Program-made: the position numbers and the translations under genes | Notes under the pieces: model-generated | Database searches by the model: none | The model's input: only the letters and a program-made list of their open reading frames with translations | Told to the model about the DNA's origin: nothing | NCBI GenBank assembly: GCA_030649345.1 | Contig: JAUSKK010000008.1 | Span: 1-32,000, forward strand | Origin: Candidatus Iainarchaeum sp. | GTDB taxonomy: Archaea; Iainarchaeota; Iainarchaeia; Iainarchaeales; 0-14-0-20-34-12 | DNA length: 32,000 nt | Reading direction: 5' to 3' | Shown here: one piece after another, positions 8,541 through 25,191 of the stretch | Position numbering within the stretch: the first letter of the stretch is position 1 | Layout: the number at the start of each line of letters is the position of its first letter

Positions 8541-8550
8541 GTTTTTATAG
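8541..8550 (-). promoter_or_regulatory. TATA box (CTATAAAAAC) for the SRP RNA gene, overlapping the Nudix stop codon
   Basis: Lies about 20-25 nt upstream of the first paired nucleotides of the SRP RNA on the minus strand. Confidence 0.5.
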
Positions 8551-9018
8551 TTTGATTTTGTCTGCTTGAATGTCTTTAAATAAATTCTTTAAATTGATGG
8601 TGATATTTTCTGGGATTTCTTCGAATTTAAACCATTTCATTTCACTGAATTTGTTTGGTTCCATTATTTTAGGAATTCCTTGCACGATTTTTGTTTTAAA
8701 AATTGGATTCACCCAATGCTGCAACCAGGGTTCCGGTTGGTCGAACGTGTTGCCTTCGCTGTTGCTTGACAGCACATTTTCTGGTGGAAAATGATCTACT
8801 ACTTTTAGTAATCGTTCGACTTCAATCTTGACTCCAATTTCTTCCATAACTTCTCGTTTGAGTGCTTGTTCTAAGGTTTCTCCGAATTCTACTTCTCCGC
8901 CTGGGAGCCCCCATTGGTTGGGCTCGTTTTTGACTTGGTTTGTTCTGTGTAAAAATAAGATTTCTTTTTTTTCGTTTTGAATTAAGGCTCCTACTCCTAC
9001 TTTGATTACTTTTTTCAT
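8545..9018 (-). CDS. Nudix hydrolase
   Basis: 157 aa. Nudix box GLPGGEVEFGETLEQALKREVMEEIGV. Confidence 0.8.
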   Translation of the reverse strand: MKKVIKVGVGALIQNEKKEILFLHRTNQVKNEPNQWGLPGGEVEFGETLEQALKREVMEEIGVKIEVERLLKVVDHFPPENVLSSNSEGNTFDQPEPWLQHWVNPIFKTKIVQGIPKIMEPNKFSEMKWFKFEEIPENITINLKNLFKDIQADKIKL

Positions 9019-11672: not shown

Positions 11673-11762
11673 CTAATCTTCTTTTTCGCAACCGTAACCC
11701 GGTTGGTGTGTTAGATCATCTTCGTTTCACTCGATGATCTTGATTCAGTCTTCTTTTTCGTA
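11673..11762 (-). mobile_element. Stop-codon-adjacent two-hairpin insertion with flanking duplication of the gene end (copy E1)
   Basis: Minus sense: TACGAAAAAGAAGACTGA (gene end, 11745-11762), then a 54-nt block, then TGCGAAAAAGAAGATTAG (11673-11690). The block is ATCA, hairpin AGATCATC/GATGATCT with loop GAGTGAAACGAA, a 7-nt spacer, and hairpin CAACCG-GGTTA-CGGTTG. Confidence 0.5.
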
Positions 11763-11852
11763 TTCGATTTCAAATTTTGGCAAAGGTGTAATGCTGGCGC
11801 GTACTGTGAGTTTGCTTTTTGTTTTTCGTTTTCGTGTTTTTTTGTTTTCCAT
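11745..11852 (-). CDS. Small ORF, 35 aa (MENKKTRKRKTKSKLTVRASITPLPKFEIEYEKED)
   Basis: AAGGAG/GGAG Shine-Dalgarno upstream of the ATG. AT-rich TATA-like tract follows a hairpin plus T-run terminator downstream of radA. Its last codons are the sequence duplicated by element E1. Confidence 0.45.
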   Translation of the reverse strand: MENKKTRKRKTKSKLTVRASITPLPKFEIEYEKED

Positions 11853-11965
11853 TGCTCCAACTCCTTTGCTGACTAAAACTTAGAATTAATTTTTAAAAAA
11901 ATAAAAATAGTGATGCTGAAATAAAATGCAAACATCACGTACTATCAACTACGATTGGAGTTGAA

Positions 11966-12940
11966 TTATTCTTTGTCTTTTGCGTCTTCTACACCGTTTT
12001 CGGTAATGGTGTAAATACATTCTCCGTCCGGTAAGCTGGGACTGTCCACCAGTTTTGCAATTCGTTTGCTTTCTTTGCTTTTACGCAAATACAACCGAGT
12101 CTTAGCCGCATGTCCTACAATGTTTCCTCCAATTGGTGCTGTGGGATCTCCGAATAAAATATCAGGGCGGTCCATAACTTGATTGGTAACCAAGACTGCT
12201 ACATTACTCATTTCAGCTAACTTGGCTAGAACACGTAAGTGTTTGTTGAGTTTTTGCTGCCGATCCGACAAAGTTCCTCGTCCAATAAACTCTGCTCTGA
12301 ATTGGGAAGTTAAGGAGTCAACAATTACAAGTTTAATATTTTTTTCTTTTACTAATTCACTGGCTTTTTCTGCCAGAATACTTTGATGATCTGCATTGTA
12401 TGCACGAGCTACAAAAATGTTTTTTAAAACTTTTTGTGAATCCAATTTTAAGTATTCAGCTACTTGAATAATTCTTTCGGGTCGAAATGAGTTTTCGGAA
12501 TCAATCCATAAACAATTCCCATTCAATCCGCCTTTTTCTACAGGCAATTGTACTGTGACAGCTGTTTCAAAACATAACTGAGTTTTACTGGAACCAAATT
12601 TTCCATATACTTCTGTAATGCTTTGAGATTCTACTCCACCGCCAATTAATTCATCCAATGCTTTGGATCCGGTAGTAATTTTTCCAATAAGTTTTCTTTT
12701 TTCAGCTAATTTATCTGCACTTTCAAAACCCATGTCTAAAGAATCTCGCGCTGCTTTGATTGCTTTGGTTGCAGTAATTTCTCCCAATCCAGCTGCTTCC
12801 ATTAATTCTGCTGGGCTGGCAATTGCAATGCTTTCTAAAGTTTTGTATCCTGCAGTATTTAGTTTTTCTGCTGCCTGAGTTCCAACTCCAGGTAAATCGC
12901 TGACTTCTTTTATGTCTGTTGGTATTTCTGTTTTCGCCAT
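11966..12940 (-). CDS. radA: DNA repair and recombination protein RadA
   Basis: Start taken at MAKTEIP (ATG at 12940), preceded by GGAGGA. HhH N-terminal domain (LPGVGTQAAEKL), Walker A GKFGSSKT, Walker B LVIVDS. Confidence 0.9.
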   Translation of the reverse strand: MAKTEIPTDIKEVSDLPGVGTQAAEKLNTAGYKTLESIAIASPAELMEAAGLGEITATKAIKAARDSLDMGFESADKLAEKRKLIGKITTGSKALDELIGGGVESQSITEVYGKFGSSKTQLCFETAVTVQLPVEKGGLNGNCLWIDSENSFRPERIIQVAEYLKLDSQKVLKNIFVARAYNADHQSILAEKASELVKEKNIKLVIVDSLTSQFRAEFIGRGTLSDRQQKLNKHLRVLAKLAEMSNVAVLVTNQVMDRPDILFGDPTAPIGGNIVGHAAKTRLYLRKSKESKRIAKLVDSPSLPDGECIYTITENGVEDAKDKE

Positions 12941-13368
12941 ATAGATTCCTCCAAAAGCAAGTACAAAGCACATATTGAGCGCATGCTTTGGCCAGCATTT
13001 GCCCTTGAGCTTTACTTGTTCAATAGTACTTTAGTTTGTTTTATTTATAAACACTTTCCAAGTAGACTTCCGGTATTTCCGGTAAAGAACTAGGTTTAGA
13101 GCAGGATTGCATTTGAATTTTGAAAATGGTGATCGGTTGTAATAACTTTTGCTTTTTCATTTTCTGAATAGCTCAGTATTCACACTATATTTATCGGTCA
13201 TTTAATCTATCCTTTTCAGTCCAAACTATTTTTTGTCCTTTTAATGTTCCGTAAAATGAAGACAATTGTTTGGGTTTACTGATGTTGATTGTCAATTTCT
13301 TTGTTTTCGTAATATGTTCCACACCCCGTGTTTTTTTCCTCTAATAAACCTTGCTCTTTGCATAGTGT

Positions 13369-17557: not shown

Positions 17558-18460
17558 TCACTTTTCCAATTCTTTAACTGTAATTTTTAAAGCAGTTTTC
17601 ATGTCATATTTTGGTTTCCATCCCAATTGTTTAATTTTAGAAATAGAATATCTTCGATTTCGAATAATTCGTTGAATATTTTCAGAACTTAAAATATTGG
17701 GTTTTCGTGTAAAAACACAAACAATTCCATTCAAGAATCCTAAAATAGTTCCCATCCAAACTGGAATGTGTTTAGTTTTTTTATTAATTTTCAATTCACT
17801 TGCAAGAGTTTCTACAACTTCATTGAGTGTGCTGGCTTTTTCTTCAGCTATGTTAAATGTTTCTCCGGATGTTTCTTCTTCGTGTTCAATGCAAAAAACA
17901 ATGGCATTGACTACATCTTCTGAATAAACTGTTTGCCATGTATTTTCTCCGGAGCCAATTACTGGAAAACCACTTTTTATTTTTCGAATAATCTCTTTCC
18001 AGTATTTATTCGGTCCAATAACAATGGCTGGCCGCAGCATGGTTACGCTAATTTGTTCTTGAAATTCTTCCACTATTTCTTCAGCTTTTGTTTTGCTTTT
18101 TTCGTATTTTGTAACTGGCCGTTTTTCAGATTCTTCGGTTAATTCAGTTTCTGCATTTCCATAAACTCCTACTGAACTTAAATGAATTACGCGTTCTACT
18201 TTGTTTTTGACACTGGCTTCAAAAATATTTTTGGTGCCTTGGACATTAATTTCAAACAGTTTAGAATTATCTTCATCTAAGGTTGCAGCGCAATGCACTA
18301 CAATTTGCATGTCTTTGCAAGCTGGCAAGCAATCTTGTAATTTTGTAATGTCTTTTCCATTGCTTAAATCAAATTCGCGTACATAATGGTTTTTGTTTCG
18401 CAAAACGATAAGCAACTTTTTTCCAATCATTCCATTAGAGCCAGTAACCAGTATCTTCAT
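17558..18460 (-). CDS. NAD-dependent epimerase/dehydratase (SDR family)
   Basis: 300 aa. N-terminal Rossmann motif ILVTGSNGMIGKKL and a YxxxK-type block (YEKSK). Confidence 0.8.
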   Translation of the reverse strand: MKILVTGSNGMIGKKLLIVLRNKNHYVREFDLSNGKDITKLQDCLPACKDMQIVVHCAATLDEDNSKLFEINVQGTKNIFEASVKNKVERVIHLSSVGVYGNAETELTEESEKRPVTKYEKSKTKAEEIVEEFQEQISVTMLRPAIVIGPNKYWKEIIRKIKSGFPVIGSGENTWQTVYSEDVVNAIVFCIEHEEETSGETFNIAEEKASTLNEVVETLASELKINKKTKHIPVWMGTILGFLNGIVCVFTRKPNILSSENIQRIIRNRRYSISKIKQLGWKPKYDMKTALKITVKELEK

Positions 18461-20207: not shown

Positions 20208-21278
20208 ATGCTTGAAATTGATTGTTCGAAAATAAATGAAGCTGGCGGCCAAATTTTGCGCACTTCTTTGGGTTTAAGTGCTCTTTTACGGAAAGAGGTT
20301 AAAATTACTCATATTCGTTCCGGTCGTCCCAATCCAGGTTTACAGCCACAGCATTTGGCAAGTGTGAACACTATTGCCAGTATGTGCAGTGCTGAATTAG
20401 AGCAAGCGAATCCCAATAGTAGTTCTTTGGTGTTTAAGCCTGGAAAAATTATTCCCAGTCAATTAAGCGTCAATATTGGTACTGCAGGTTCTCTTTCTTT
20501 AATGCTTCAACAATTGCTGCCTGTTTCTTTGGTTGAAAAAATTGAATTGCGTGCTCAAGGCGGAACCCATGTTTCTTTTTCTCCTTCTATGCATTTTATG
20601 CAAGAAGTTTTATTTCCTCAATTGAAACGAATGGGTCTGCATTTGGATTTAGATTTATTGCAGTTTGGTTTTTTTCCAAAAGGTAATGGACGAATTTTTT
20701 TTACCAGTGAAAAACCTAAGTTGCCTTTGAAGGCTTTAAAGCTTTCCAGTTTAGGAAAACTTTCGTACATTAAATGTTATTCAATTTGTTCGGGTTTGCC
20801 TAGAGAAATTGCTTTTGTTCAAGCCAATAGTGCTTTGAAGTCTTTGCAGAAAAAAATTCCCGACAATGATTTTGAGTTTGTAGAACAAGTGAACGCAACT
20901 CCTACACGCAAAGACACAATTGGAACTGCTTTAGATTTGTTTGCATATTTTGATTCTGGTTTAGTTTTAGCTGGCAATGCTTTGGGTGAAAAAGGAAAGC
21001 CTGCAGAACAAGTAGGCCAAGAAGCCGCAGACAATTTGTTAACTCAATTGGAAGCCCAAAAATCCTGCGATCTCCATTTAGCGGATCAAATTATTCCATT
21101 TTGTGCTTTAGCAAAAGGCGAATCAGAATTACGTGTTTCAAAAATTACGCAACATTGTTTAACCAATATTGAGATTGTGAAATTGTTTTTACCAGAAGCT
21201 GAAATGAGTGTTCACGGAAACTTAAATGAGCCTGGAATAATTAAAATTAAAGGAATTGCTTTTACTGGTTTGCCTTAA
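20208..21278 (+). CDS. rtcA: RNA 3'-terminal phosphate cyclase
   Basis: 356 aa. GGGQILRTSLGLSALL N-terminal block and PGLQPQHL, with typical RtcA length. Confidence 0.85.
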   Translation: MLEIDCSKINEAGGQILRTSLGLSALLRKEVKITHIRSGRPNPGLQPQHLASVNTIASMCSAELEQANPNSSSLVFKPGKIIPSQLSVNIGTAGSLSLMLQQLLPVSLVEKIELRAQGGTHVSFSPSMHFMQEVLFPQLKRMGLHLDLDLLQFGFFPKGNGRIFFTSEKPKLPLKALKLSSLGKLSYIKCYSICSGLPREIAFVQANSALKSLQKKIPDNDFEFVEQVNATPTRKDTIGTALDLFAYFDSGLVLAGNALGEKGKPAEQVGQEAADNLLTQLEAQKSCDLHLADQIIPFCALAKGESELRVSKITQHCLTNIEIVKLFLPEAEMSVHGNLNEPGIIKIKGIAFTGLP

Positions 21279-22375
21279 TTTTTGCAAGTAATTAAAATAT
21301 CGTTTCCAGATTTTTGCATTTCTGTTATTTTCAAATTAAATTTTCCTGCAATTTTGGGTTGAATAAAATAAGTGCCTGTCTGAAACACTTTTGGGCTAAC
21401 CACGATCATTATTTGATCTGCAATTTTTGCTTTCAATAAACTGGTATTCAAGGTTTGCCCGCCTTCCACTAAAATACTTCCTATGTTTTGTTTTCCGAGT
21501 TTTTTGAATACTTGTTTTAAGTTAAATTTTCCAGACTGGATAGGCAATTCCAGGAACTGAATTTTTTCTTTGAGTCTTTTTTCCAGTTTTCTTTTTTTAA
21601 TTTTATTTATTGAATCCAATTTGTTTCCAGTTACAATAATGATTTTTCCTTTTTGGTTTAATACTTTTGCAGTCACAGGAATTTCCAAAAATGGGTCTAA
21701 AATAATGCGTACTGGATTTCTTCCATTTTTGATTCTACAAGTCAGTCTTGGATTATCCTGGATAACTGTTTTGACTCCAACCAAAATTCCGTCTAAAGTA
21801 TTCCGCAATTGATGAACAAATCTTTGTGTTTTTTTCCCATTAATCCAGTGTTCTTTTTGTTCTTTGCTCCAAATCAGTCCATTGGCTGTCATTCCAATTT
21901 TTTGCACAATGTACGGTATTCTTGTTTGAATCCATTTCAAATAAGCTTGGTTTATTTCTATGCATTCTTTTTCTAAAATATTTGTTTGAACTTGAATTCC
22001 AGCTTTTTTAAGCGCTTGAATTCCTTTTCCTTTAACTTTGGGATTCAGGTCTTTCATTCCAATAACTACTTTCCGAATTCCAGAATTTACAATGGCCGGA
22101 ACACTGGGAGGCGTTTTTTTTTCTTTTCCAGAATGAAAACAAGGTTACAAAGAAACATACAGTGTACTTCCTTTTGCTTTGTTTCCAGCTATTTTCAAAG
22201 CATTAATTTCTGCATGATTTTCTCCAAACTTTTCATGAAAACCTTTTCCTACAATTTTCCCATTGTTGACAATTAAACAGCCGACCAATGGATTGGTTTG
22301 TGTTCTGCCTAAACCTTTCAGAGCTAAATTAATAGCTAATTTCATAATTTTTTCGTTTTGGTTCAAGAATGCCAT
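21275..22375 (-). pseudogene. ribD: Fused riboflavin RibD (deaminase + reductase) interrupted by one in-frame TAA
   Basis: ORFs 22145-22393 (deaminase N-part, NHAE motif) and 21275-22057 (reductase) are in the same frame. The only interruption is a TAA at 22145-22147, where RibD proteins have the Glu of L-E-P-C. Reading through gives ...TLYVSL*PCFHSGKEKKTPPSVPAIVNSGIRKVVIGMKDLNP... The second zinc Cys (TPPC) is Ser here. Confidence 0.65.
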
Positions 22376-22541
22376 ATATGTCTCTAAAACCAACCTTAAT
22401 TTAGTTTATTCCATTTTAAGGCCTTTTAGTGACCTTTTTAAACCCTGTGTTTTATTATTATTTTAACCAATTGAGCTGATGCTTCGAAAGAAGCAAGCGT
22501 TTTGCTTTGCTCTTGGTTTAAGGAAATTAATTATTAAATAG

Positions 22542-23172: not shown

Positions 23173-23499
23173 ATGGATGAAAATTTAGATTCATTAAGGC
23201 AGCAGCGCATGCAGCATTTGAAAAAAAATGCAGAAGACAAAAAAAGCCAGCAAGAGCAAGCAATGCAAGCTCAAATGCAAGTGAATGCTTTAATGATTCA
23301 GTATCTAGAGCCGGCAGCCAAAGAACGGTTGAACAATGTAAAATTAATTAATTCAGAATTGTACGGAAAAGTTGTTCAAACTGTTTTGTATTTGGTGAAA
23401 AGCCAAAAATTGAATCGAAAAATAACGGATATTGAATTAAAAAAATTATTAACTTTGGCCACAGGTCAAAAACGAGAAATTAAAATTGTAAGAAAATAA
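23173..23499 (+). CDS. PDCD5/TFAR19-family dsDNA-binding protein
   Basis: 108 aa. Pattern LEPAAKERLNNVKLIN...VVQTVLYLVKSQKL...ITDIELKKLL typical of the family, and the expected position in the conserved archaeal cluster. Confidence 0.75.
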   Translation: MDENLDSLRQQRMQHLKKNAEDKKSQQEQAMQAQMQVNALMIQYLEPAAKERLNNVKLINSELYGKVVQTVLYLVKSQKLNRKITDIELKKLLTLATGQKREIKIVRK

Positions 23500-23580
23500 A
23501 TCAGTAGTGCTGAATGAAATGAAGCACTACGTTCGACCAACCGGAACCCCGGTTGAGAAGTTAAAATTGTAAGAAAATAA
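23474..23580 (+). mobile_element. Stop-codon-adjacent two-hairpin insertion with flanking duplication of the gene end (copy E2)
   Basis: Gene end GAGAAATTAAAATTGTAAGAAAATAA (23474-23499), a 55-nt block (23500-23554), then GAGAAGTTAAAATTGTAAGAAAATAA (23555-23580; 25/26 identical). The block is ATCA, hairpin GTAGTGCT/AGCACTAC with loop GAATGAAATGA, a 7-nt spacer, and hairpin CAACCGG-AACC-CCGGTTG. Confidence 0.55.
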
Positions 23581-23600
23581 AAAAATATTGAGGAATCATA

Positions 23601-23888
23601 ATGGCAAGACATAAAACACAAGAATTCAAACAATTTGCAATTGCAAAACGCAGAAGTGTCGGAAGTACTTTAAGTGCTGCTCCAGTTTGGACTTTTCAGA
23701 AAGCAAATCGCAGATTGTTTTCAAAGACCAGCAAGCGTACTTGGAAACAAATAGGTATTGGGAAGTTATTTGACGAACAACAACATACTAAAGAAACCCA
23801 AGCCATCAAGCATATGAAGCGTTCTTTTTTAGTCAAAAAAAGAGCACGATTAAATAAGAAAATAAAATCAAAAAAGAAAACAAATTAA
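23601..23888 (+). CDS. rpl39e: 50S ribosomal protein L39e with ~40-aa basic C-terminal extension
   Basis: The N-terminal ~55 aa (MARHKTQEFKQFAIAKRR...APVWTFQKANRR...KRTWK) match the L39e pattern. GAGG Shine-Dalgarno upstream. Confidence 0.75.
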   Translation: MARHKTQEFKQFAIAKRRSVGSTLSAAPVWTFQKANRRLFSKTSKRTWKQIGIGKLFDEQQHTKETQAIKHMKRSFLVKKRARLNKKIKSKKKTN

Positions 23889-24380: not shown

Positions 24381-25040
24381 ATGAAATTTACTAAACAATA
24401 TTTGAATTCCAGCCCCTACATTGGCGTATTTGCAGTTACCAGTGAAACGATTTCTTTATTTCCTGCTTTTATTACAAAAAAACAAAAACTTTATTTTCAA
24501 GACATTTTGGGAACAGAAATTATTCAAGGAACTTTAGCAGGATCGCATTTATTGGGTGTGTTTGCTGTTGGATCGCAAAACAAGTTTTTAGTTTCCAATC
24601 TAATTTCAGACAAAGAATTGGATTTTTATAAAAATCAAGGATTGAAATTAGAAGTCTTAAGTGATAATTTGGCAGTTGGAAATTTAATTGCTTTAAATGA
24701 TTTTGGAGCAGTTTGTAGTCCTATTTTTTCCAAAGAAGACATCGCAAAGATTAAATCTTTTTTGGGCACAGAAGTTGTTACTTCTTTGGTTGGAAATCAT
24801 GATCTAACCGGGGCCAGTTGCAAGGCAACCAATGTTGGATTTATTGTAAGTCCTATGGTTACAGAACAAGAATTTAGTGTTTTGCAGAAAACATTAAAGG
24901 TAGACGGAATGCGAACCACAGCCAATTACGGTGATAGATATGTAGGCAATGGATTAATTGCCAATTCAAAAGGCGCAGTGATTGGTGTTCCAACCACAAC
25001 CCATGAAATGATTCGCATAGATGAAGCATTCAGAAAATAG
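24381..25040 (+). CDS. eif6: Translation initiation factor 6 (aIF6)
   Basis: 219 aa. Pentein-repeat pattern (IGVFAVTSE, LLGVFAVGSQN, VGNLIALND, ATNVGFIVSP, VGNGLIANSKG) and the conserved cluster position. Confidence 0.85.
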   Translation: MKFTKQYLNSSPYIGVFAVTSETISLFPAFITKKQKLYFQDILGTEIIQGTLAGSHLLGVFAVGSQNKFLVSNLISDKELDFYKNQGLKLEVLSDNLAVGNLIALNDFGAVCSPIFSKEDIAKIKSFLGTEVVTSLVGNHDLTGASCKATNVGFIVSPMVTEQEFSVLQKTLKVDGMRTTANYGDRYVGNGLIANSKGAVIGVPTTTHEMIRIDEAFRK

Positions 25041-25156
25041 GAATGAAATTTGAAGAGATGTACCACAAAATTTTAAATTTTGCGTATATACAAAATCGAT
25101 GATTTTGTAGTACATCGAAACCGTAGGTTTGGATAGACGAGGCATTCAGAAAATAA
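25017..25156 (+). mobile_element. Stop-codon-adjacent structured insertion with flanking duplication of the gene end (copy E3, larger and diverged)
   Basis: Gene end ATAGATGAAGCATTCAGAAAATAG (25017-25040), a 92-nt block, then ATAGACGAGGCATTCAGAAAATAA (25133-25156). The block starts GAATGAAATTTGAAG, has a 15-position hairpin 25057-25071/25102-25116 with a nested hairpin, then AAACC-GTA-GGTTT (25118-25130). Confidence 0.5.
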
Positions 25157-25191
25157 GAATAATTGAAACTAATATTTGAAAGGTGAAATGT

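Follow-up and report, generated by a model that had tools for sequence, protein, structure and literature searches.

Several described families of repeats and small mobile elements bear on the subject of this study, a two-hairpin block of about 55 nt between a PDCD5-like and an L39e-like gene of a Diapherotrites/DPANN archaeon with a small genome (Candidatus Iainarchaeum sp., assembly GCA_030649345.1, contig JAUSKK010000008.1, positions 1 to 32,000; this whole 32-kb stretch is referred to as the window). REP/BIME (REPIN) sequences, which lie just after stop codons in one orientation or the other, are extragenic imperfect palindromes that combine hairpin modules into mosaics and evolve in concert; they affect the stability of mRNA 3' ends, as well as translation when near the stop codon, generate no target duplication, carry a conserved GTAG head and require a RAYT transposase gene. 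Rickettsia palindromic elements (RPEs) are bacterial, measure about 100-150 nt, form hairpins and occupy intergenic regions or are inserted in frame as a tolerated translated loop; to our knowledge, long target duplications are not a feature of RPEs. Insertion sequences of the IS1634 group (IS4 family) produce long direct target repeats, from tens to hundreds of bp, and are autonomous, with terminal inverted repeats and a DDE transposase. In the A+T-rich, compact mitochondrial genomes of yeast, Allomyces and Magnusiomyces, G+C-rich hairpin modules of 30-80 nt, known as GC clusters, double-hairpin elements or byps, are distributed sporadically, sometimes in coding regions, with structurally constrained stems, modules that merge and shuffle, and flanking repeats of only 2-3 nt, AG or ACT (PMC4478555). 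Among archaea, a MITE-like C/D box small RNA (sRNA) element, which is small, structured and non-coding, has multiplied in the genome of Pyrobaculum calidifontis; it has conserved terminal inverted repeats and consensus C/D boxes, and lies about 322 nt from genes on average (Lui et al. 2018, PMC6009581).

The block at the PDCD5-L39e junction, hereafter copy P (23504-23555), is an insertion; it belongs to a family whose hairpins are structurally constrained, and the duplications flanking P and its relatives start at the 3' hairpin. The analysis covered the 32-kb window and Logan contigs or loci of relatives, with 4 to 5 copies examined: besides P, these are N (8722-8775), S (11689-11740), R (11910-11963) and E (25045-25132), and the first and second repeat flanking an insert are denoted DR1 and DR2. 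We consider it somewhat probable that P is a copy of a dispersed family of non-coding two-hairpin repeats of approximately 54-56 nt, which are non-autonomous, structure-dependent and accompanied by duplications. Our best reading is of a repeat, selfish or domesticated, that is constrained in structure and makes long target duplications of variable length, and the feature, which is real and reproducible, is best filed as a short hairpin-forming interspersed repeat.

The first-pass annotation, made from the DNA sequence alone, had described 2 hairpins directly after the TAA of the PDCD5-like gene followed by a repetition of the gene end (23474-23580), and this layout is borne out. The gene ends in GAGAAATTAAAATTGTAAGAAAATAA, its stop codon TAA ending at 23499; hairpin A consists of GTAGTGCT and AGCACTAC around the loop GAATGAAATGA, the spacer is GTTCGAC, and hairpin B is CAACCGG-AACC-CCGGTTG. 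The repeated gene end (23555-23580) is identical at 25 of 26 positions, the sole change, A>G, amounting to Ile>Val if read, and the last G of hairpin B doubles as the first base of the repeat, which makes the lengths depend on how such shared bases are assigned (25-27 nt for the repeat, 55 or 56 nt for the core). The predicted fold consists of precisely these 2 hairpins, with a minimum free energy (MFE) of −23.3 kcal/mol compared to −9.5 ± 2.3 kcal/mol for shuffled sequences (z −6.0; 0 of 200 shuffles as good), and the repeat is the strongest short-range direct repeat of the window (z 7-8.6 versus shuffled controls). The block is also richer in G+C than its surroundings, as had been noted (52% versus 34% for the window). 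Over 4805 nt, both junction duplications included, an independent assembly (Logan contig L034, SRR13727527) agrees with the window at every position, and thus the layout is not an artefact of a single assembler. Deletion in silico of the core and one repeat leaves the gene end, a 20-nt spacer with a GAGG Shine-Dalgarno sequence, and then the L39e-like start codon, the predicted empty junction being ...AAGAAAATAA joined to AAAAATATTGAGG; the same 20-nt leader with its GAGG follows DR2 at present. The expectation that such a deletion would restore the junction is consistent with the relatives, in which the junction spacers of 78 loci typically range from −4 to about +20 nt, compared with 101 and 151 nt in the window, and in one of which (L036) there is a 4-nt overlap between the genes for PDCD5 and L39e. 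The suggestion that the element had brought its own replacement gene end is unlikely, because each repeat is the end of the local gene, and the PDCD5-like C-terminus encoded by DR1, REIKIVRK, is also found in a 64%-identical relative (P0065).

A covariance model built on 4 aligned copies, R not being used in the building, had 4 matches in the window, namely N (64.6 bits), P (61.1 bits), S (58 bits) and R (28.4 bits; E 2e-5 with filters off), and the exact core had a match in 0 of 100 shuffles. In the four-copy alignment, 98.3% of cells are in standard pairs and 10 of the 15 pairs, among them the 8 pairs that make up hairpin A, have changed on both sides; 0 of 500 shuffles equalled the observed pairing and covariation, and sliding the partners left 27-53% paired. 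The stem of hairpin A is wholly different in P and S, with a loop that retains the pattern GA-R-UGAAA-Y-GA, where R and Y covary (A-U in P, G-C in S), whereas in hairpin B and the spacer the sequence itself is conserved. At the 5' end, ATCA is present in P and S and not in N or R. The distance of intergenic copies to a stop codon is 0 nt for P, S and the copy in the related contig L053 and 2 nt for R, with both orientations represented. Five of 7 copies are sense to the host gene; a strict sense orientation is rejected, R and the L053 copy being antisense. The 2 further copies named by the first-pass annotation are present, at 11673-11760 (minus strand) and 25017-25160, the latter, E, being a looser relative; N and R had been missed. 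The claim that copies are always at a stop codon fails as well, since N is intragenic and in frame, R and the L053 copy are antisense, and the repeat in another relative (L056) runs into the next gene.

The core search and covariance model recommended by the first-pass annotation recovered additional copies in the window and in Logan contig L115, but scans of collections with the exact core were empty: an 18-mer of the core had 33 matches among genome contigs, all of them chance and bacterial, a 22-mer had none among metagenome contigs, and hairpin B had none among viral contigs. BLASTN searches yielded nothing against phages and one chance match, in Shewanella, against plasmids. Rfam searches at the element returned nothing at gathering thresholds or at E<=1, and at E<=10 only SNORD93 (E 1.4). 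Thus, the view that no described RNA or element family matches the block is upheld by the Rfam, phage, plasmid and terminator searches. A generic two-hairpin descriptor proved unspecific (71 real matches versus 40-51 in shuffles). The GARTGAAAYGA loop motif had one extra match in a plausible context (L076), where homology is uncertain; as this match alone is extra and folds differently, the loop was rejected as a family marker.

Copy N lies in frame within a Nudix gene, encodes VLSSNSEGNTFDQPEPWL and was recognized through a core match at 8722-8746 (minus strand; 24 of 25 nt identical; 0 expected from shuffles) in searches for inverted repeats and for the core with mismatches. Exactly the 17 residues at N are absent from 9 of 10 homologues (alignment A2), including P0033 of the nearest relative, which shares an ENA sample with the relative whose eIF6 is 73% identical, and the closest solved Nudix structures (4dyw, 5gp0 and 6dby) are without about the same stretch. 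P0032 (72% amino acid identity; encoded by L115, which is syntenic with the SRP RNA gene) carries a 54-nt insert at the N site, and this orthologous copy scores 64.1 bits with the covariance model. The N site is represented here in both its empty and filled states; of the empty sites whose examination had been proposed, that of N was therefore found, through the homologues lacking the 17 residues. Between N and its L115 orthologue, both hairpins are retained and 3 pairs have changed on both sides (G-C/A-T, A-T/T-A and G.U/C-G), with 2 changes repairing a mismatch or wobble and 0 pair-disrupting changes, while the peptide over the same stretch is not conserved, changing from NTFDQPEPWL to STSHHPALGM. 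The 5' half of N is akin to the L115 orthologue and the 3' half is identical to P at 35 of 36 positions (z 15.8), a mosaic that suggests gene conversion or recent copying between copies.

Hairpin A of S is GATCATC/GATGATC with the loop GAGTGAAACGAA, hairpin B is CAACCG-GGTTA-CGGTTG, and the flanking repeat, CGAAAAAGAAGA(C/T)T(G/A)(A/G), is 16 nt long with 12 nt exact, at offset 0 both after hairpin B and before ATCA. The hairpin-B end of R is 2 nt from the stop codon of radA (11966-12973, minus strand), its fold is weak and is better on the radA-sense strand, and inspection revealed no significant flanking repeat. E was not recovered by the covariance model in the 32-kb window and its similarity to S is marginal (p 0.05), the homology to both P and S being weak; it has their architecture, a long hairpin and then a small 3' hairpin that adjoins DR2, and we treat E as a looser relative of the P family. 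The sequence at which E begins is similar to the loop of hairpin A, and a microhomology of 4 nt is possible there. Its DR1 and DR2 differ by transitions only, which affect the stop codon or third codon positions.

The unusually long target duplication proposed for P is confirmed, and the lengths vary between inserts: 16 nt for S, 25-27 nt for P, 28 nt for E (about 38 nt gapped) and about 36 nt for L056. Among 118 AACC..GGTT hairpins in 630 kb, the 3 top-ranking flanking repeats were those of E, L056 and P, in each of which 0-2 nt separate the hairpin from DR2; for S, the exact repeat at offset 0 is 12 nt long. L056 is a JGI contig encoding an approximately 42% identical eIF6, in which an insert of about 94 nt with 4 G+C-rich hairpins ends in ...CACACCAACCAAGCATGACGGTTG and is directly followed by a gapped repeat of about 36 nt in which the stop codon of eIF6, a Shine-Dalgarno-like GGGG run and the LX start codon ATG are all contained. 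This repeat reaches 23 nt beyond the stop codon, taking in the start codon of the next gene, so that the true stop codon comes from DR1 and the true ribosome-binding site and start codon come from DR2. Overall, DR1 and DR2 differ at 7 positions, all 7 being transitions and 5 of 7 falling at third codon positions (p about 0.05), a bias that would be expected anyway if the changes had accumulated in the constrained coding copy. The insertion sites of the 4 events have no nick-site consensus.

Modules ending in CAC(A)CC-AACC..GGTTG are found in the distant relatives L056, L053 and L069, the L053 module lying between the stop codon of a primase-like gene and a tRNA gene, antisense to both, and between tRNA genes of L048 there are hairpins that share their stem or loop with hairpin A; these shared modules imply that the family has spread over distant relatives as hairpin mosaics. 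In L048 (4310-4460) and L053 (5366-5450 and 6089-6139), clusters of G+C-rich hairpins fill the spacers between tRNA genes, with one stem equal to that of P hairpin A (GCACTAC/GTAGTGC) and 2 loops (AAGCGAAGC) akin to N.

Compared with the described systems, P, S and R recall REP/BIME sequences in lying 0-2 nt from stop codons in both orientations; however, N is intragenic, the duplications argue against REP membership, and no RAYT (TnpA_REP) gene was detected among the window open reading frames (ORFs) scanned against Pfam. Copy N, an in-frame translated hairpin insert lacking in 9 of 10 homologues, is RPE-like, but the window elements are shorter, archaeal and accompanied by long duplications, and no sequence homology to RPEs was detected. 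The elevated G+C content of the cores (46-57% versus 34%) and the module mosaics in L056, L053 and L048 are reminiscent of the GC clusters, which, in contrast, are organellar and flanked by 2-3 nt repeats rather than the 16-38 nt found in this archaeon. Unlike the Pyrobaculum element, the two-hairpin family is without those inverted repeats or boxes and adjoins genes. The long variable target duplications are shared with the IS1634 group, of which neither the ends nor the gene were seen here. The family thus differs from RPEs, mitochondrial clusters and REP/BIME in its long variable duplications and archaeal host, and looks like an undescribed archaeal counterpart of the bacterial and mitochondrial hairpin repeats.

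In our proposal, a repeat with a variable hairpin A, a conserved hairpin B (CAACCGG..CCGGTTG) and a spacer of about 7 nt would have spread through the Diapherotrites genome and its relatives by insertion at breaks with widely and variably staggered ends, or by an equivalent copy-in, with fill-in duplicating the target. Where genes abut or overlap, the survivors would mostly be events whose duplication spans a junction, DR1 preserving the stop codon of the upstream gene while the leader, Shine-Dalgarno sequence or start codon of the downstream gene is kept by DR2, and this would account for the association with stop codons. Lying just 3' of the stop in the neighbouring mRNA, the hairpins may then persist as a 3'-end or intercistronic structure. 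The adjacency to stops may also come from a target preference (the pre-insertion stops are all TAR, in an A-rich context) or, alternatively, might reflect selection for a hairpin directly 3' of the stop in the neighbouring mRNA, as with bacterial REP sequences. That the family represents an undescribed class of DPANN non-autonomous elements of about 55 nt, with 2 hairpins, no inverted terminal repeats and duplications of 16-38 bp, retained beside stops as structured RNA modules, is a tentative possibility, for which a small RNA copied by target-primed reverse transcription, or widely staggered cuts made by an integrase or nuclease, would be candidate mechanisms; the family may instead be a variant of the known hairpin repeats (REP-, RPE- or GC-cluster-like).

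Several observations weigh against a mobile repeat of this kind. No significant direct repeat flanks N, and the duplication is thus not obligatory, while the compensatory evolution of the orthologous N copies fits a host-selected RNA better than decaying selfish DNA. The 0-2 nt distance to stops in both orientations (P, S, R and L053) is hard to obtain by survival bias alone. In the nearest relative, the one with the 73%-identical eIF6 and the only one returned by the PDCD5 homologue search (ENA ERZ27297570), the PDCD5-L39e spacer is 173 nt, the empty state being documented for the N site only. For E, L056, L053 and L069, homology to P is argued from short motifs and common architecture, and the exact-core scans of genome, metagenome and viral collections found nothing real. 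Finally, the Pfam scan of the window ORFs revealed no transposase, integrase or reverse transcriptase, so that the mobilising enzyme sought by the first-pass annotation is not encoded within the window.

Some of these points bear on a rather doubtful, though serious, alternative, a host-functional RNA module (for example, a protector of 3' ends against exonucleases, a site of processing or insulation between cistrons, or a protein-binding site) whose spread is secondary. Strong covariation and the compensatory changes that keep the N hairpins while the peptide changes speak for such a module, as do the sense orientation of 5 of the 7 copies and the wobble pairs of N, which slightly favour the sense strand (2 G.U and 1 mismatch, versus 1 wobble and 2 mismatches on the other strand). 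Furthermore, the intergenic hairpins are always 0-4 nt 3' of the stop of the neighbouring mRNA, R is better on the radA-sense strand, and P and N have nearly the same spacer and hairpin B, as expected of a binding site. However, there is no Rfam match, most relatives are without an insert at these junctions, so that the insert is not a conserved operon feature, R is decaying, the contexts are mixed (3' UTRs, the interior of an ORF, spacers between tRNA genes and antisense positions), and in the absence of a T-run the block is not a terminator. The module and the mobile repeat overlap as explanations, because a mobile element could be domesticated. We regard as unlikely the SINE-like retroposition of an RNA of about 55 nt by target-primed reverse transcription at staggered nicks, with hairpin B as the recognition element. 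DPANN archaea are known to carry reverse transcriptases, the duplications are long and, as in SINE-like insertion, variable in length (16 to about 38 nt), DR2 always adjoins the conserved 3' hairpin while the 5' ends vary, and the start of E, with its possible microhomology, resembles the hairpin-A loop. Against this, the window has no reverse transcriptase, there is neither a 3' tail nor a nick-site consensus, N is without a duplication, and the 5' truncation of E is confounded by the gapped extension of its repeat; moreover, we know of no archaeal precedent.

The remaining explanations fare considerably worse. It is very improbable that the block is the remnant of an integrative or homing element with a replacement gene end, DR1 and DR2 being att-like or a co-converted exon copy: the repeat differences, mostly synonymous or stop-to-stop, could reflect two once-coding copies, but the bias is weak (p about 0.05), DR1 matches the protein of a relative, a cargo of only 55 nt beside the ends of 3 genes would imply a different att for each copy, and the window scan found no integrase or endonuclease gene near P. 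Local slippage, tandem duplication or an assembly artefact without any element deserves hardly any credence. Tandem gene-end duplications are known in related contigs (L098, L081/L082 and L055), but the 55 nt between the repeats of P are not a local duplicate (p 0.98 against the downstream sequence) and are homologous to the other copies, the Logan assembly is identical over 4.8 kb, and the shared core refutes this explanation. The original preference for insertion over slippage is accordingly sustained by the same core at unrelated loci (P and N, 35/36, z 15.8) and by the narrow junctions of relatives. Derivation of P hairpin A from a longer L39e-leader duplication was likewise rejected, the extension not being significant (p 0.98). 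A known RNA class, whether C/D box sRNA, bulge-helix-bulge (BHB) intron, self-cleaving ribozyme or intrinsic terminator, is also highly unlikely. The hairpin A loop contains CUGA and AUGAAAUGA, loosely D'/C' box-like, and tandem G.A pairs are possible, but terminal C/D boxes and the 3-nt bulge of a K-turn are lacking, the tandem G.A is symmetric, Rfam is empty at E<=1, and SNORD93 reaches 16.5 bits against a 60-bit threshold. No BHB is present in the MFE folds, the direct repeats cannot pair, and the helix closing N is not kept in L115; the putative hammerhead-like core CUGAAUGA does not fit CUGANGA and no Rfam hammerhead matches; and 23300-23750 contains no terminator-like site or T-run.

Other element types were also considered and rejected. 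A classical MITE shares with the family its dispersed, non-coding, multicopy nature (4 covariance-model matches in 32 kb); however, the ends ATCAGTAG... and ...CCGGTTG are not complementary, the inverted repeats being internal hairpins, and duplications of 16, 25-27, 28-38 and about 36 nt, with none at N, are neither short nor fixed. The initial description of the block as devoid of terminal inverted repeats and coding capacity is therefore retained. Hairpins are present, as in an IS200/IS605-derived element (PATE), but the left flanks differ (ATAA, CTGA and AAAT) where a fixed tetra- or pentanucleotide would be expected, duplications are present, and no TnpA was found in the window ORF scan. 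The ends expected of an integron attC site are unpaired, GTTGAGA and GTTGCGA are unlike GTTRRRY, and the host genes are housekeeping genes; the latter also speaks against a diversity-generating retroelement (DGR) template/variable pair, in which, in addition, the repeat differences would be adenine-specific, and they are not.

DPANN genomes are tiny, with genes that abut or overlap, and the room for selfish DNA in them is thought to be minimal. If the mobile-repeat explanation is true, copying the gene junction upon insertion would be a way in without harming either gene, overlapping junctions and coding loops of compact genomes would be colonised without inactivating the neighbours, and an as-yet unrecognised archaeal insertion enzyme or retroposition pathway would be implied. 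The compensatory evolution of both hairpins, even in a coding region, suggests an RNA-level role beside stops. Such inserts enlarge intergenic spacers, break short-read assemblies and yield pseudo gene ends that can mislead annotation.

P is located in an archaeal ribosomal-protein cluster (S19e, PDCD5-like, L39e-like, L31e, eIF6, LX, prefoldin alpha and FtsY), and the remainder of the window contains housekeeping genes, SRP RNA and 2 tRNAs. The positions of the elements, their repeats and the genes at the junction are listed in Table 1.

Table 1. Two-hairpin copies, flanking repeats and adjoining genes in the 32-kb window.
Feature	Positions	Strand	Description
PDCD5-like (dsDNA_bind) gene	23173..23499	+	ORF; Pfam PF01984, E 9e-18; last 25-26 nt including stop = DR1
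DR1 of P	23475..23499	+	AGAAATTAAAATTGTAAGAAAATAA; functional gene end including TAA
P core	23500..23555	+	Fold z −6.0; covariance-model score 61 bits; covariation
P core, ATCA	23500-23503	+	
P core, hairpin A	arms 23504-23511 and 23523-23530; loop 23512-23522	+	
P core, spacer	23531-23537	+	
P core, hairpin B	arms 23538-23544 and 23549-23555; loop 23545-23548	+	
DR2 of P	23556..23580	+	AGAAGTTAAAATTGTAAGAAAATAA; non-coding gene-end copy directly 3' of hairpin B
L39e-like gene	23601..23888	+	95 aa; leader unharmed by duplication
N	8722..8775	-	54-nt two-hairpin element, in frame in Nudix gene (8545-9018, minus strand); covariance-model score 64.6 bits
DR1 of S	11745..11760	-	CGAAAAAGAAGACTGA; end of 35-codon ORF 11745-11852 (putative gene)
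S core	11689..11744	-	56 nt: ATCA-A, hairpin A, spacer, hairpin B; covariance-model score 58 bits (11689-11740)
DR2 of S	11673..11688	-	CGAAAAAGAAGATTAG; begins directly after hairpin B
R	11910..11963	+	Decayed two-hairpin copy, antisense to neighbours; covariance-model score 28.4 bits, E 2e-5 to 4e-4
DR1 of E	25017..25044	+	eIF6 gene end ATAGATGAAGCATTCAGAAAATAG plus GAAT
E	25045..25132	+	88-nt structured insert; long hairpin GATGTAC.../...GTACATC and 3' hairpin AAACC-GTA-GGTTT (25118-25130)
DR2 of E	25133..25160	+	ATAGACGAGGCATTCAGAAAATAAGAAT; three differences from DR1

The ORF in the L39e position (23601-23888) is roughly double the usual length and ends in a Lys-rich tail; it resembles L39e at the N-terminus only and has no Pfam match. 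The 35-codon ORF at 11745-11852 (minus strand), MENKKTRKRKTKSKLTVRASITPLPKFEIEYEKED, is preceded by a GGAG Shine-Dalgarno sequence and bracketed by copies S and R; it belongs to no Pfam family and is a putative gene, which bears on whether S sits at a stop codon.

At the PDCD5-L39e junction of a distant relative (L076, 9198-9314), there is a 117-nt structured insert that folds unlike P and includes GAGTGAAACGA, the loop motif of S, as well as the hairpin AAACC(T6)GTA(A8)GGTTTG. In a 50%-identical relative (L035, 1320-1400), past the stop codon of eIF6, ATTGACGAAGCGT is repeated as AATGACGGAGCAT (10 of 13 positions) approximately 35 nt away, which may be a decayed junction duplication. Further gene-end duplications occur in the related contigs L098 (9933-10261), L081/L082 (16163-16356) and L055 (8862-8960), among them tandem repeats, perfect or nearly so, whose periods are 171 and 95 nt, as well as a gapped junction duplication of about 45 nt that includes a stop and a start codon; these may reflect a general theme of compact genomes, or some may be assembly artefacts.

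A tRNA-Lys(UUU)-like gene in L103 (about 17830-17960), not called by ARAGORN, has an insert of about 44 nt in the D-loop containing CAACC-TTTTTGAAA-GGTTG with the flanks ACAACAC/GTGTTG, and this insert may be a non-canonical intron with a hairpin-B-like hairpin. Elsewhere in the window, a ribD-like deaminase/reductase gene (21275-22393, minus strand) has an in-frame TAA (22145-22147) at the position of the Glu of the (L/V)EPC motif of homologues, and the next zinc-ligand Cys is replaced by Ser (TPPS); a pseudogene, a sequencing error and recoding are the alternative explanations.

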